A stretch of DNA of 20,000 nucleotides from an uncultured virus (IMG/VR IMGVR_UViG_3300025410_000672) (taxonomy: Duplodnaviria > Heunggongvirae > Uroviricota > Caudoviricetes): the IMG/VR virus record IMGVR_UViG_3300025410_000672, positions 57,738-77,737 of that record, one strand, 5' to 3'. The translations under genes and the position numbers were made by a program. This document shows, piece by piece, positions 4,283-7,090 of the stretch. Each line of letters opens with the position of its first letter. Within the stretch, counting starts at the first letter, position 1. Below the pieces are notes generated by a model, which was not told where the DNA came from, made no database searches, and was given only the letters and a program-made list of their open reading frames with translations.

Positions 4283-4792
4283 ATGCCGTTCAAATCAAAA
4301 TTATCTAAATGTAAATTAGTTATTACCGATGTAGATGGGGTACTTACAGATGGTAGAATCTATTATACAGAGCATGGTGAAACAATGAAGGAGTTTCATG
4401 CTCGAGATGGTTTTGGTGTTATAATGTTACAAAAGATGGAAATTAAAACGGCAGTTATAAGTGGACTCGGTTCTGAGGCTTTACAAAAACGAGTTTCCGA
4501 TTTAGGTATTGAATATAGTTTTTATCATGTAAAAGATAAATCTGCGATATGTAAAACACTTATGGAAAATTTATCTCTTCATCCAAATGAGGTAATTTGT
4601 ATTGGTGATGAAATAATAGATCTTCCAATGTTTGAAGTTTGTGGAACATCTTTTGCTGTAAATGATGCTCCAATATACATAAAAGAAAAAGCCGAAAGAG
4701 TTCTTTTTTCGAATGGTGGAAGAGGAGCGTTTCGAGAAGTAGTAGATGAGATAGTAAAAGCAAAAGGGTTGCCTTTCGAACACTTTGTTTAA
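4283..4792 (+). CDS. kdsC: 3-deoxy-D-manno-octulosonate 8-phosphate phosphatase (HAD, KdsC/YrbI family)
   Basis: DVDGVLTDG, K.F..RDG.G, IGD..IDLP and GGRGAFREVVD motifs. Confidence 0.9.
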   Translation: MPFKSKLSKCKLVITDVDGVLTDGRIYYTEHGETMKEFHARDGFGVIMLQKMEIKTAVISGLGSEALQKRVSDLGIEYSFYHVKDKSAICKTLMENLSLHPNEVICIGDEIIDLPMFEVCGTSFAVNDAPIYIKEKAERVLFSNGGRGAFREVVDEIVKAKGLPFEHFV

Positions 4793-4803
4793 GGGACCTT
4801 TTG

Positions 4804-4879
4804 GATCCCTTAGCTCAGTAGGTAGAGCACTCGACTTTTAATCGAGTTGTCCTGGGTTCGAATCCCAGAGGGATCACCA
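4804..4879 (+). tRNA. tRNA-Lys (TTT)
   Basis: GATCCCT/AGGGATC acceptor, anticodon arm CTCGA-CTTTTAA-TCGAG, TTCGAAT T-loop, CCA. Confidence 0.96.
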
Positions 4880-4882
4880 TTT

Positions 4883-4908
4883 TGGGGTATCGTCTAATGG
4901 TAGGACAG
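4883..4908 (+). pseudogene. Truncated 5' fragment of a tRNA-Gln-like gene (acceptor 5' strand plus D-arm only)
   Basis: TGGGGTA-TC-GTCTAATGGTAGGAC-AG: U1-GGGG start typical of bacterial tRNA-Gln and a complete D-arm (GTC/GAC, conserved GG). It lies 3 nt after the tRNA-Lys CCA and breaks off at the anticodon stem. Confidence 0.8.
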
Positions 4909-4916
4909 TATAAATA
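4909..4916 (+). promoter_or_regulatory. T4-type late promoter TATAAATA driving the HNH gene
   Basis: Exact T4 gp55 consensus, 4 nt before ATG 4921. Confidence 0.7.
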
Positions 4917-4920
4917 CTAT

Positions 4921-5460
4921 ATGTTATCCAAAAATATTGATGAAAATTTAATTAAAGAATTATTAGATAGCGGAAAGACTAATAAAGAGATTTCTTTTAT
5001 TCTAGATATTTCGGCACCAACTGTTACATATTGGAGAAAGAAACTTAAAAAAGGATTATCAATAAAAAGATACAATTGGAAAGAAATACAAGAAGCACAC
5101 AATAATGGATCTTCTTATTCAAATTTAAGAAAAGAATTTGGTGTAACTAAACGGTCAATCGAAATGGCTAAGAAGAGGGGAGATTTTAGTACAAGAAAAA
5201 TTCCTTGTATGGATCCGGAACAAGCAAAATTAAGAAAAAGAAATAGAAGAGAAGCATGGATGAGATATCATAGCCGAAAGAAATATCAGACTCCCGCCGA
5301 CGAAGATATAAAAAAACTACAAGAATTTTATGCTAACTGTCCACCTGGATACGAAGTCGATCATATTATACCAATTTCTAAGGGAGGATTACATTCAATA
5401 TCTAATTTACAATATTTAACAAAATCTGAAAATCGTGCTAAAAGTAATAAAATAATTTAA
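4921..5460 (+). CDS. Free-standing HNH homing endonuclease with N-terminal HTH domain(s)
   Basis: HTH GKTNKEISFILDISAPTVTYWRKK; a second HTH-like segment; C-terminal YEVDHIIPISKGGLHSISNLQYLTKSENRAKSNK. True start is taken as ATG 4921 because the track's 4882 start reads through the tRNA remnant. Confidence 0.88.
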   Translation: MLSKNIDENLIKELLDSGKTNKEISFILDISAPTVTYWRKKLKKGLSIKRYNWKEIQEAHNNGSSYSNLRKEFGVTKRSIEMAKKRGDFSTRKIPCMDPEQAKLRKRNRREAWMRYHSRKKYQTPADEDIKKLQEFYANCPPGYEVDHIIPISKGGLHSISNLQYLTKSENRAKSNKII

Positions 5461-5535
5461 TGGGGAGTGGTGCAATGGTAGTCACGTCGGACTTTGACTC
5501 CGAAAATGATCGTTCGAGTCGATCCTCCCCAGCCA
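5461..5535 (+). tRNA. tRNA-Gln (TTG)
   Basis: TGGGGAG/CTCCCCA acceptor, anticodon arm TCGGA-CTTTGAC-TCCGA, T arm GATCG-TTCGAGT-CGATC, G73, CCA. Confidence 0.93.
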
Positions 5536-5537
5536 AA

Positions 5538-5545
5538 TATAAATA
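5538..5545 (+). promoter_or_regulatory. Late promoter TATAAATA upstream of tRNA-Gly
   Basis: Exact consensus 6 nt before the tRNA 5' end. Confidence 0.65.
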
Positions 5546-5551
5546 CCTCAT

Positions 5552-5650
5552 GCGGGTGTAACTCAGAGGTAGAGTTCTTGCTTGCCTGAAGACATTAAGG
5601 TGTCTTGAATAAGCAAGATGTCGAGGGTTCGAATCCCTTCGCCCGCTCCA
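5552..5650 (+). tRNA. tRNA-Gly (GCC) with a 24-nt intron-like insertion (5587-5610) in the anticodon loop
   Basis: GCGGGTG/CGCCCGC acceptor with U73 (Gly identity), D arm ACTC/GAGT, anticodon stem CTTGC/GCAAG, T arm GAGGG-TTCGAAT-CCCTT, CCA. Removing 5587-5610 gives a canonical TTGCCAA loop and a 75-nt tRNA. Confidence 0.88.
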
Positions 5651-5661
5651 AAATCTCCAGG

Positions 5662-5689
5662 TTGACATATCTATAATAGACTGTATAGT
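5662..5689 (+). promoter_or_regulatory. Sigma70-like promoter
   Basis: TTGACA-N16-TATAGT in the intergenic gap. Confidence 0.6.
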
Positions 5690-5734
5690 TATAATTGTAA
5701 GGTGAGTGAAAGACTTACTATTATGGAGATTGAG

Positions 5735-7090
5735 ATGAGCAAGTCTAAAGACATAACGAAGACTCCGTTTGACCCTAGTGAAGGTTGGAAAAGTCGCAAA
5801 GTGCCTTTGGTTCAGGTTGCTAGAAATATTAATAAAAGATTAAAAATTAAAAAGCCAAATACTTCTTTTAATTATAAAGATGTGTTAAAATTTGATTGGG
5901 TACCTGTTAAGAAATGTATTCTTAATTATGACCGGCAGAGATATCCAGAGCCAACTCACATTGAAAAATTGTTGATTAAATGGAATATTATTTGTGCTAC
6001 CCCTTTACAGGCTAGATATAGTAAAGAAGAAGATTTGTATTATATTGCAGACGGGCAACAACACGGTATTGGTTGGGTTTTGCAATATGGTGAAGATAGT
6101 CTTGTTCCAGTTTGTTATGTTGAGAGTGAAGATGAAAATATTGAATCTATTCAACTTCTTGCTCTCAATACTGATTCTGAACCTATGGCAAAGTATTTTA
6201 TCCATAAGCAGAAATGTATAATGGGAGATGCTGAGTCTATTGCTCTCGAGAATACAGTCGTTAATGCCGGATGTTCAACTGGATATAACAAGAGGGCGCC
6301 TGGCGTTATTACTCTTATCAATGACTTACTGATTGCTCAAAAGGATTATGGATTAGAAGATCTAGGAAAAGTTCTTTCTTTTATGAGGAGACATTTTCCT
6401 ACTGAAAAAATTCATACTGCTAATATGTTAGGGTTTCTTAAAGTTAAAGAACTTCTTACACTCGAACAGAAGTATAGTGATACACTGTTTGAGGATATCT
6501 TTAATGCATCTACTGATTACTTCGATGCAGGTGATGCCTTACATAACAATATTAAAAGAGAATTTGAAATTTTATATCCAACAAATTACAGAGGCATGGG
6601 AGTTAGAGAAAAAGTTGCTAGTGGAATTATTAGTATCTATGAAAAAATCGAAGGGAAAGAACTTTGTTCAAAACCCTTTAATGTAGATATGCCTTATAAT
6701 AAAAATATACCTAACTACGATCCTAGCACTTATCATACTTGGAAATTATATCGTACCGTTTGTAAAACTGAGGACTTCCGTCCAGTTTGGGCTCACAAAA
6801 ATGCAGATAAATGGGGGGTAGAATACAATGACTTTCTTCCTCTTTGTCACGATACTTGTTCTTGCTGTGGTAGTGAACTTGACTATGGTTTAGGGAAAAA
6901 TAATAATAATAAGTTAGATGAAAATACTCCTTCAACTGATCATCGTATTCCTCGTAGTAAGGGAGGAACAAATGATGTAACTAATCTTCAGGTTATATGT
7001 ATGAAATGTAACACATTAAAAAGTAATTCTACTCCTGATGATATTCCACGATACAAGAAGATTATCGAGATGCACGAGAGTGTCAACTAA
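5735..7090 (+). CDS. ParB/Srx-like (DGQHR-type) domain fused to a C-terminal Zn-binding HNH endonuclease
   Basis: N-terminal RQR...YYIADGQQH motif; C-terminal CSCCG...STDHRIPRSKGGTNDVTNLQVICMKCNTLK. GGAG SD favours ATG 5735. Confidence 0.75.
   Translation: MSKSKDITKTPFDPSEGWKSRKVPLVQVARNINKRLKIKKPNTSFNYKDVLKFDWVPVKKCILNYDRQRYPEPTHIEKLLIKWNIICATPLQARYSKEEDLYYIADGQQHGIGWVLQYGEDSLVPVCYVESEDENIESIQLLALNTDSEPMAKYFIHKQKCIMGDAESIALENTVVNAGCSTGYNKRAPGVITLINDLLIAQKDYGLEDLGKVLSFMRRHFPTEKIHTANMLGFLKVKELLTLEQKYSDTLFEDIFNASTDYFDAGDALHNNIKREFEILYPTNYRGMGVREKVASGIISIYEKIEGKELCSKPFNVDMPYNKNIPNYDPSTYHTWKLYRTVCKTEDFRPVWAHKNADKWGVEYNDFLPLCHDTCSCCGSELDYGLGKNNNNKLDENTPSTDHRIPRSKGGTNDVTNLQVICMKCNTLKSNSTPDDIPRYKKIIEMHESVN

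Follow-up and report, generated by a model that had tools for sequence, protein, structure and literature searches.

Introns in the tRNA genes of bacteria and phages are generally regarded as self-splicing ribozymes, and short introns that are spliced by proteins are assigned to archaea and eukaryotes. A group I intron is a ribozyme with a core of helices P3-P9 and a typical length of about 200 nucleotides (nt) or more. The bulge-helix-bulge (BHB) motif consists of two 3-nt bulges with a 4-bp helix between them and carries both splice sites. Group I introns in the anticodon loops of bacterial and phage tRNA genes are the subject of a review (PMC3984707). Furthermore, 'enigmatic' tRNA introns with predicted lengths of 79-141 nt have been described from Lak megaphages (Devoto et al. 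2019, PMC6784885), and the accessible part of that paper gives no mechanism for them. In this study, we analyzed a window of 20,000 nt from an uncultured virus of the Caudoviricetes (IMG/VR record IMGVR_UViG_3300025410_000672, positions 57,738 to 77,737). The window makes up the final 20 kb of a viral contig of 77,737 bp (G000; CheckV completeness, 22%) and contains a tRNA-Gly(GCC) gene that is interrupted by a 24-nt hairpin insert. As described below, this insert belongs to a real, structurally conserved family of hairpin mini-introns at tRNA position 36/37 in huge phages of bacteria. A conserved hairpin of 24-40 nt at one exact tRNA position in two unrelated giant phages, with no self-splicing and no matching endonuclease found, would, if it is spliced, not fit this general view.

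The interrupted tRNA-Gly(GCC) gene

Positions 5552-5650 of the plus strand form a complete tRNA-Gly(GCC) with 24 extra nt between tRNA positions 36 and 37. The preliminary description of this DNA had reported such a gene with its arms, identity elements and CCA terminus intact, and we reach the same assignment from the Rfam model and from direct reading. RF00005 covers 5552-5647 end to end (54.9 bits against a cut-off of 29; model positions 1-71), and 28 nt of the match fall at four anticodon-loop positions of the model. The acceptor pairs G1-C72, C2-G71 and G3-C70, as well as U73 and CCA, are all intact; together with C35 and C36, these pairs and U73 constitute the glycine identity set, which is present as read from the sequence. 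The cloverleaf with four arms is given both by the RF00005 match and by the fold of the spliced 75-mer. The anticodon loop is 31 nt long and is ordered as TTGCC, 24 nt (5587-5610) and AA, so that a contiguous 7-nt loop, TTGCCAA, is obtained only when 5587-5610 are removed. There are eight possible 24-nt removals that leave a 7-nt loop, and TTGCCAA results only from that at 36/37. Three of the other frames likewise leave A37, with the anticodons GCT, GAT or AAT. Therefore, purine 37 alone cannot fix the splice site.

An intact orthologue fixes the site. The phage G006 (128,772 bp) is a relative in which the OMP-like protein is 82% identical, and it has the gene order of the window: tRNA-Lys(ttt), tRNA-Gln(ttg), tRNA-Gly(gcc), OMP and tRNA-Val(tac). 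Its tRNA-Gly(GCC) is an ordinary 75-nt gene that ARAGORN calls as Gly(gcc), and all 20 tRNA matches in G006 are 71-87 nt long. Because the alignment of the two genes (A1) contains a gap of exactly 24 nt between TTGCC and AA, the insertion site is established. Thus, the placement at 36/37 in the preliminary description was correct as the only frame that restores TTGCCAA. More distant relatives of the OMP (55-68% identity) have no upstream tRNA-Gly, and protein searches for close relatives with the HAD gene and the 455-aa gene led to the same phage only.

The 99-nt precursor is predicted to fold into a cloverleaf in which the insert hairpin is stacked on the anticodon stem (-38.5 kcal/mol, z = -3.71), and its energy was matched by none of 200 shuffles. 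The pair probabilities are 0.87-1.0, with the exception of the pair between the first and the 22nd insert base, U(i1)-A(i22) (0.53). ARAGORN in its default mode makes no call for this gene. With intron search, as recommended in the preliminary description, it returns Val(tac), with an intron of 8 nt and an extra arm of poor quality; we rejected this call as an artefact. The insert is unique within the contig at up to four mismatches.

The inserted DNA is genuine and not an assembly artefact. Over 27,698 bp, insert included, a second assembly (G001; a 107,488-bp contig of a different metagenome) shows 100% identity without a single mismatch. The region is present in 24 freshwater sequencing runs of 2017. 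Four of these runs were examined, and in two of them one contig crosses the whole gene with no differences and no gaps (X5, 4700-5646; X6, 4822-5646). In runs X7 and X10, no listed piece bridges the insert. No contig joint in the four runs omits the 24 nt. A 352,510-bp metagenome contig represents the same phage.

Members and conserved structure of the insert family

A broader viral scan (TTGCC, 19-49 nt, common T arm) gave 14 loci, two of which are interrupted tRNA-Gly(GCC) genes: the copy in the second assembly and a gene in G014 (L325), a 543,035-bp phage contig rated 100% complete. The G014 tRNA-Gly(GCC) carries a homologous 39-nt insert at the same 36/37 position. A second member was found in G014 about 850 bp from its Gly(GCC) and directly after a tRNA-Gly(TCC); its loop reads TTGGT, 40 nt and AA. 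This 40-nt insert is plainly homologous to the 39-mer, and its removal, again at 36/37, leaves a clean tRNA-Thr(GGU). The precursors of the two G014 genes would be 114 and 115 nt long. ARAGORN labels the gene Ala(ggc), which we rejected as a one-base shift in conflict with U3-A70, given that tRNA-Ala needs G3-U70. A Leu(taa) call in G014 was also rejected, as an artefact or one base off. The comparison of G014 with the window phage gave only 11 matches among 115 open reading frames (ORFs), with identities of 28-45%, and one of these matches is an antisense artefact that covers the tRNA; the GC contents are 35% and 49%, respectively. Judged from these values, the two phages are not close relatives.

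The three members share one architecture. In each of them, three pairs lengthen the 5-bp anticodon stem: U32-A38, U33-A37 and one that joins G34 to the last base of the insert (G-U in the window and G-C in G014). Bases 35 and 36 are bulged, and in the Thr member these are G35 and U36. The first base of an insert of n bases faces base n-2 (U-A, U-A and C/U in the three members), and base n-1 is unpaired, although in the Thr member it is pairable with base 36 (U-G). Beyond the junction there is a stem of 7-10 bp. The duplex around the junctions has nine lower and 7-9 upper pairs with an internal loop in the window, and 8 + 10 pairs in the G014 members; thus, a coaxial duplex of about 20 bp, as expected of an RNase III substrate, is present. 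When excised, the hairpin would have a 2-nt 3' overhang in all three members. The whole composite hairpin of the window gene scores 43.3 bits with a covariance model (R1) built from the three arms, and pair probabilities and an unguided RNAalifold consensus agree with it.

The preliminary description had asked for covariation of the hairpin across homologues, and had named an insert unique to this genome and without structural conservation as evidence of a recent pseudogene. The homologues in G014 show that the insert is neither. In the alignment of the three sequences (A6), 96.2% of 53 cells pair; shifting the partners by 1-3 columns lowers this to 33-55%. Both sides have changed in nine of the 18 pairs, which are still paired, and the observed values were reached by none of 500 shuffles. 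RNAalifold without a guiding structure returned the same 18 pairs. The column alignment A6 shifts the window row by one pair; in a hand alignment of the two Gly inserts, three of eight homologous stem pairs are double changes. In addition, G-U wobbles occur on the tRNA-sense strand only (G34-U24 and U9-G14 in the window, U9-G29 in G014), a pattern that fits selection on the RNA and not on a cruciform in the DNA. All three members have intact exons, and each gives a clean cloverleaf after removal of the insert.

Further searches define how far the family extends. Exact-sequence viral scans for the insert and for the anticodon arm found the second assembly only. A first scan with the 3' half matched at least 80 loci, and one of 80 had this insert. 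Model R1 found no fourth member in the 811,421 bases searched. Among GenBank phages, 11 records show matches that are confined to the exon halves and cover less than 80% of the query; the three of them that were inspected (Tunturi_5, Atu_ph07 and RsoM2USA) have ordinary, unannotated tRNA-Gly genes. A megablast search of 5000-6500 against GenBank phages gave no match. In a full-text search of the literature, neither hairpin introns of about 20-40 nt in phage tRNAs nor a route for their removal were described. The family is small and apparently mobile, and it apparently occupies position 36/37 of huge-phage tRNAs with the loop U32 U33 G34 N N A37 A38.

Other long tRNA matches were seen in G002 and G014. 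In G002, a complete phage of 360 kb that has terminal repeats, the tRNA model matches 122 nt on the minus strand with 43.8 bits (L110:228-349, G002:C1:9727-9848); 53 nt lie at four model loop positions, and the anticodon stem is mismatched. Model R1 does not match this gene, which places it outside the family, and its fold is no better than that of shuffles (z = -0.53). In G014, over-long tRNA calls were obtained for Cys (94 and 88 nt), Asn (92 nt), Lys (90 and 89 nt) and Gly(TCC) (85 nt), at G014:C1 positions 81155-81248, 98917-99008, 99623-99712, 99872-99956, 99969-100056 and 103623-103711. For the Cys call at 81155-81248, the tRNA-Sec model gives the top score, which is below the cut-off. 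These G014 tRNAs may have long variable arms or other kinds of insert.

Possible removal of the insert and alternative explanations

The contig encodes PmoC/AmoC, and the phage PmoC (L023:7411-8175; G000:C1:45411-46178) is 93-95% identical to proteins of Methylocystis and other Beijerinckiaceae. Therefore, the window appears to come from a large 'pmoC phage' of a bacterial, alphaproteobacterial methanotroph host and not of an archaeon; on the PmoC sequence, the host is likely a member of the Methylocystis group. Large pmoC phages have been described (PMC7674155), and the word 'intron' is absent from the accessible text of the pmoC/amoC phage papers, including that one.

We favor the explanation that the insert is a protein-spliced hairpin mini-intron that is removed from the precursor, and on the sequence comparisons above we give this an even chance. 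With the insert, the anticodon stem of the precursor would become a single extended hairpin of some 18 pairs that has a small internal loop where exons and insert meet. Proteins would cut both junctions and rejoin the exons, so that a normal 75-nt tRNA-Gly(GCC) is formed. The most likely cutter would be a double-strand-specific enzyme of the RNase III type, supplied by the host. Its staggered cut would free a hairpin whose 3' overhang is 2 nt long and would produce 5'-phosphate and 3'-hydroxyl ends, and the remaining nick in the anticodon loop would be closed by a phage RNA ligase (Rnl1 or Rnl2 type). The coaxial duplex of the whole arm, about two helical turns in length, resembles an RNase III substrate. 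Rnl1/Rnl2-type ligases join 5'-phosphate and 3'-hydroxyl ends, which are the ends that RNase III leaves. The assignment of the removal to RNase III and a ligase is tentative and, as it stands, rather doubtful. It is likewise only a possibility, and a somewhat unlikely one, that huge phages have a third, protein-only type of tRNA splicing besides group I self-splicing and the BHB endonuclease, with mobile mini-introns at 36/37 of tRNAs with a UUGNNAA loop, RNase III-type excision and Rnl1/Rnl2-type resealing.

All seven probable-host genomes encode RNase III; no phage record does. RtcB is found in two of the seven, and it needs the opposite end chemistry. G014 encodes RtcB, one Rnl1-type gene (111 bits) and two Rnl2-family genes above the cut-off; a weak third Rnl2 match lies inside the span of the Rnl1-type gene and may not be a separate gene. 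The ligase matches of G014 are located at about 63.6 kb, 30.2 kb and 366 kb. The window phage has a Pnkp-type phosphatase (L021:686-1171, G000), and its relative G006 also has a Pnkp-type kinase (L201:12940-13395). The tRNA set of G014 is also relevant. It comprises 66 ARAGORN calls, or 68 with the intron search, and the interrupted gene is the only Gly(GCC) among them; Gly(TCC) and Gly(CCC) are each present in two copies. In the ORFs of the window phage, GGC and GGU account for 53% of the glycine codons. An uncharacterised endonuclease acting with an RNA ligase had been put forward in the preliminary description. It is still the best reading of the conserved family, of the interruption of the sole Gly(GCC) gene in G014 and of the ligases in that phage.

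We made two side observations on these enzymes. The RtcB gene of G014 (G014:C1:14487-16685, minus strand; L338, L339) matches its model in two pieces (model positions 49-426 and 14-50) about 0.9 kb apart within one 803-aa frame, which looks like an interruption by an intein or another in-frame insertion. Pnkp seems to be split into two genes in this lineage, with the G006 kinase about 12 kb from the phosphatase. A 464-aa ORF beside the kinase had no Pfam, PHROG or PDB match.

Several results weigh against removal of the insert by splicing. A search of about 157 kb of the window phage (about 45% of a 352-kb genome) yielded no RNA ligase, RtcB, RNase III or splicing endonuclease. Another phage, G004, also has ligases, and no interrupted tRNA is known there; therefore, the presence of ligases does not discriminate. 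The family consists of three members from two phages only. All 24 runs that contain the region are DNA and none is RNA. The alignment has three sequences, and four of its nine double changes fall in the anticodon stems and reflect differences between the tRNAs. The G014 Gly gene has a U6-U67 mismatch in its acceptor stem. On the exon side the overhang would measure 3 nt, unless a pair between base 36 and base n-1 is allowed (C-A in two members, U-G in one). Finally, G014 has an intact second copy of Thr(GGU), and a Gly(UCC) tRNA could cover the GGN codons. The interrupted genes could thus be dispensable.

This last point leads to the alternative that retains most weight, although we regard it as unlikely: the gene is dead or dispensable, the hairpin is selfish or accidental DNA that is never removed, and the phage uses the host tRNA-Gly(GCC) or its own tRNA-Gly(UCC). 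The window phage does have a Gly(TCC) gene, which together with the second Thr(GGU) of G014 and the lack of ligase and nuclease genes in the 157 kb searched would suit such a gene. Palindromic inserts can arise and spread at the DNA level, and we know of no bacterial splicing enzyme for an insert of this kind. A dead gene would, however, not be expected to keep its stems by paired changes with sense-strand-only wobbles, or its exons intact in three of three members. Nor does it explain why two unrelated phages and two tRNA types share one junction geometry, or why, in a complete genome with 66-68 tRNAs, it is the only Gly(GCC) gene that carries the insert.

A second alternative, which we judge quite unlikely, is that the unspliced 99-nt RNA is itself functional as a tRNA look-alike. 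It might be a decoy or masked substrate for a host anticodon nuclease, with C35 and C36 exposed, or a chargeable glycine carrier that does not read codons. Conservation of structure would suit any functional RNA, the predicted fold leaves C35 and C36 without partners, the acceptor keeps its identity set, and phage tRNA variants that evade nucleases are known in general. The Thr member, in contrast, bulges G35 and U36, so that the exposed bases merely follow the anticodon. Furthermore, precise removal restores a canonical 7-nt loop in every member, which a decoy does not need, and we know of no decoy target for tRNA-Gly.

A third explanation is compatible with splicing. The insert may break the target of a flanking HNH nuclease, which would then cut the intact tRNA-Gly genes of competitors, as in collaborative homing. 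The preliminary description had likewise considered an insertion that destroys a nuclease target. HNH ORFs lie on both sides of the gene (Table 1), both they and the insert are absent from the syntenic G006 site, and the downstream HNH gene has its own strong promoter. The interrupted allele also looks imported. Its exons are identical to the G014 interrupted gene at 63 of 75 positions and to the G006 intact gene at 56 of 75, its T arm shows no differences from G014 and six from G006, and the short flanks around the gene match G014 as well. From these comparisons, the allele appears to have been imported and not inherited in place, which fits gene conversion driven by a homing endonuclease. 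A precedent is SegB of phage T4, a homing endonuclease that recognizes and cuts tRNA genes in the phage tRNA cluster (PMC2330249). This explanation meets difficulties outside the window. In G014, 19 ORFs were scanned in the surroundings (about 4 kb) of the two interrupted tRNAs, and no HNH domain was found in them. The family of the 455-aa ORF lies away from tRNA genes in 31 of 35 other viral loci, and elsewhere it forms a conserved two-gene unit that is not obviously selfish. Moreover, the co-occurrence of insert and HNH genes comes from a single comparison, that of the window with G006. We therefore hold the HNH shield to be improbable, at about the level of the functional unspliced RNA or just below it.

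Splicing of the archaeal or eukaryal type by a BHB endonuclease is very improbable. The insert is indeed short, lies in the anticodon loop and would by necessity depend on a protein. However, the required 4-bp central helix has only two, one and one of its four pairs in the three members, so that the judgement in the preliminary description that no clean BHB can be drawn extends to the whole family. The position is 36/37 and not 37/38, and the probable host is bacterial. The splicing endonuclease family tRNA_int_endo (Pfam) was found in none of seven probable-host genomes, three records of the lineage and six other phage records including the complete G014, in a search whose control was positive in four archaea. 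A group I intron was also rejected, since 24 nt is too short for the catalytic core, as had been stated at the outset; a permissive Rfam search of 5440-5700 (E up to 1) returned only tRNA and a chance plastid match, and no ribozyme family. Lastly, an assembly or sequencing artefact, conceivable for a metagenome-derived contig and foreseen in the preliminary description, has a negligible chance in view of the two identical assemblies, the two runs whose contigs span the gene and the homologous inserts in an unrelated phage.

If the insert is spliced as a mini-intron, an undescribed pathway of RNA cutting and rejoining operates in bacterial infections. The RNA ligases of jumbo phages would then gain a routine role besides the repair of damage by host nucleases, and a phage could gate or protect its own tRNAs during infection. 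For annotation, the consequence is that tRNA finders miss these genes or mislabel them as Val, Leu or Ala, and that the tRNA sets of huge phages and analyses of their codon usage are incomplete.

Genomic setting and relation to known systems

The features of the locus are collected in Table 1. tRNA-Gln and tRNA-Gly are probably co-transcribed. A scan for sigma-70 promoters found none in front of tRNA-Gly. The preliminary description had assigned TATAAATA as the gene's own promoter, and this was not upheld: the motif, which we take to equal the late-promoter consensus of phage T4, occurs three times in the window against 4.29 expected by chance. It also lies 7 nt ahead of the homologous gene in G014, and G006 has a near-match; this conserved position in G014, the sole argument in its favor, weakly suggests a promoter.

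Table 1 Features in and around the interrupted tRNA-Gly(GCC) gene. Positions are those of the 20,000-nt window.
Feature	Positions	Strand	Description and evidence
192-aa ORF, helix-turn-helix + HNH	4882..5460	+	Pfam HNH 1.5e-6, GerE/helix-turn-helix; PHROG endonuclease VII/HNH 1.4e-14
tRNA-Gln(TTG)	5461..5535	+	16 nt upstream of tRNA-Gly; ARAGORN, Rfam; same order in G006
TATAAATA	5538..5545	+	6 nt before tRNA start; promoter status uncertain
5' exon	5552..5586	+	Acceptor 5' strand, D arm, anticodon-stem 5' strand, loop 32-36 (TTGCC); RF00005, alignments with G006 and G014
Composite hairpin	5577..5617	+	Anticodon stem, U32-A38, U33-A37, G34-U (last insert base), bulged C35/C36 opposite bulged A, insert stem
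24-nt hairpin insert (mini-intron)	5587..5610	+	7-bp stem, 4-nt loop; first base opposite base 22; last two bases form 3' overhang
3' exon	5611..5650	+	Loop 37-38 (AA), anticodon-stem 3' strand, variable loop, T arm, acceptor 3' strand, U73, CCA
Sigma-70-like promoter	5662..5689	+	TTGACA, 16 nt, TATAGT; 11/12; directly after tRNA, into 455-aa ORF
455-aa ORF (from ATG 5723)	5702..7090	+	~330-aa domain + C-terminal HNH (Pfam); absent at G006 site

The 192-aa HNH ORF fills the entire gap between tRNA-Lys and tRNA-Gln and is absent at the G006 site. In three of the four runs examined, contigs join 4883 to 5556, with 672 nt skipped, seven other letters between and a shorter side of 20 letters. This joint is probably the tRNA neighbourhood of another organism, or it may be a variant without the 192-aa HNH ORF and tRNA-Gln.

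The 455-aa ORF has 283 homologues, the best of which have a length of about 330 aa and show 60-67% identity across 70% of the query sequence. Its N-terminal domain gave no significant PDB, NCBIfam or Pfam match; the very widespread N-terminal family of about 330 aa has an invariant DGQQH block and a hint of DUF6551 only (Atlas, Pfam). In 33 of 35 other viral loci (L205-L239), the first frame closes after 320-340 residues, and the other two are cut by contig ends. At most of the 35 loci an HNH match comes next, in some cases with 0.5-0.6 kb between the two parts, and 31 of the 35 have no tRNA within 2.5 kb. On this arrangement, the 455-aa ORF is not a plain homing endonuclease, and its family would elsewhere constitute a conserved two-gene unit.

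Beyond PmoC/AmoC, the 77,737-bp contig encodes DnaK, ClpP, ClpS, FtsH, ribosomal protein S21 and IF-1, together with an OmpA-like barrel, an L,D-transpeptidase and T4-like baseplate parts. The second assembly extends the same phage by about 80 kb past the window (G001:C1:1-79790; L104-L107). This part encodes a family B DNA polymerase, ThyX, GTP cyclohydrolase I, a ClpB-like protein, DnaJ, peptide deformylase, PhoH and several radical SAM proteins, as well as Mtd-type tail fibre N-termini and a 1,477-aa collagen-repeat protein.

The window gene can be compared with several known systems. RNase III cuts processing hairpins such as the signals in the early region of phage T7. These resemble the anticodon arm of the window gene in being coaxial hairpins of about two turns with a small internal loop at the cut sites, and the cuts implied by the modeled arm would likewise be staggered, with a 2-nt 3' overhang on the excised piece. 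To our knowledge, no RNase III site is followed by religation or lies inside a tRNA anticodon arm.

The protein-spliced tRNA introns of archaea and eukaryotes are likewise short inserts in the anticodon loop that do not self-splice and that pair with loop bases. They differ in that they have a BHB, a splicing endonuclease and sealing of the RtcB or Trl1 type, whereas the window insert has no BHB, lies at 36/37 and is found in a phage of a bacterial host. In addition, no splicing endonuclease gene was found in the probable-host genomes or phage records searched. Group I introns in tRNA genes occupy the same kind of location, can be mobile and move with homing endonucleases. In contrast to the 24-nt window insert, they are of ribozyme size.

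Collaborative homing has reportedly a precedent in the psbA intron of cyanophages with the endonuclease F-CphI. That intron is self-splicing, whereas the window insert cannot self-splice and the G014 members have no HNH gene nearby. The setting of T4 SegB is also similar: endonuclease genes lie within a phage tRNA cluster and are absent from a close relative, and the allele seems to have been imported with its flanks. SegB targets the T-loop region and no insert is involved, whereas the window gene has an insert in the anticodon loop.

The closest likeness is to the Lak introns. They measure 79-141 nt, and one has a predicted tRNA-like fold, whereas the window family consists of bare hairpins of 24, 39 and 40 nt at a defined 36/37 junction. 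The Lak host is Prevotella, and that of the window phage would be an alphaproteobacterial methanotroph. The one Lak intron that was inspected showed no sequence likeness to the insert. In common, both types occur in the anticodon loop of huge-phage tRNA genes, including a tRNA-Gly. Both are conserved across genomes, are missed by bacterial tRNA finders, have boundaries that come from insert-free alleles and have no known mechanism. Thus, the hairpin family is a novel variant among the poorly understood tRNA introns of phages.

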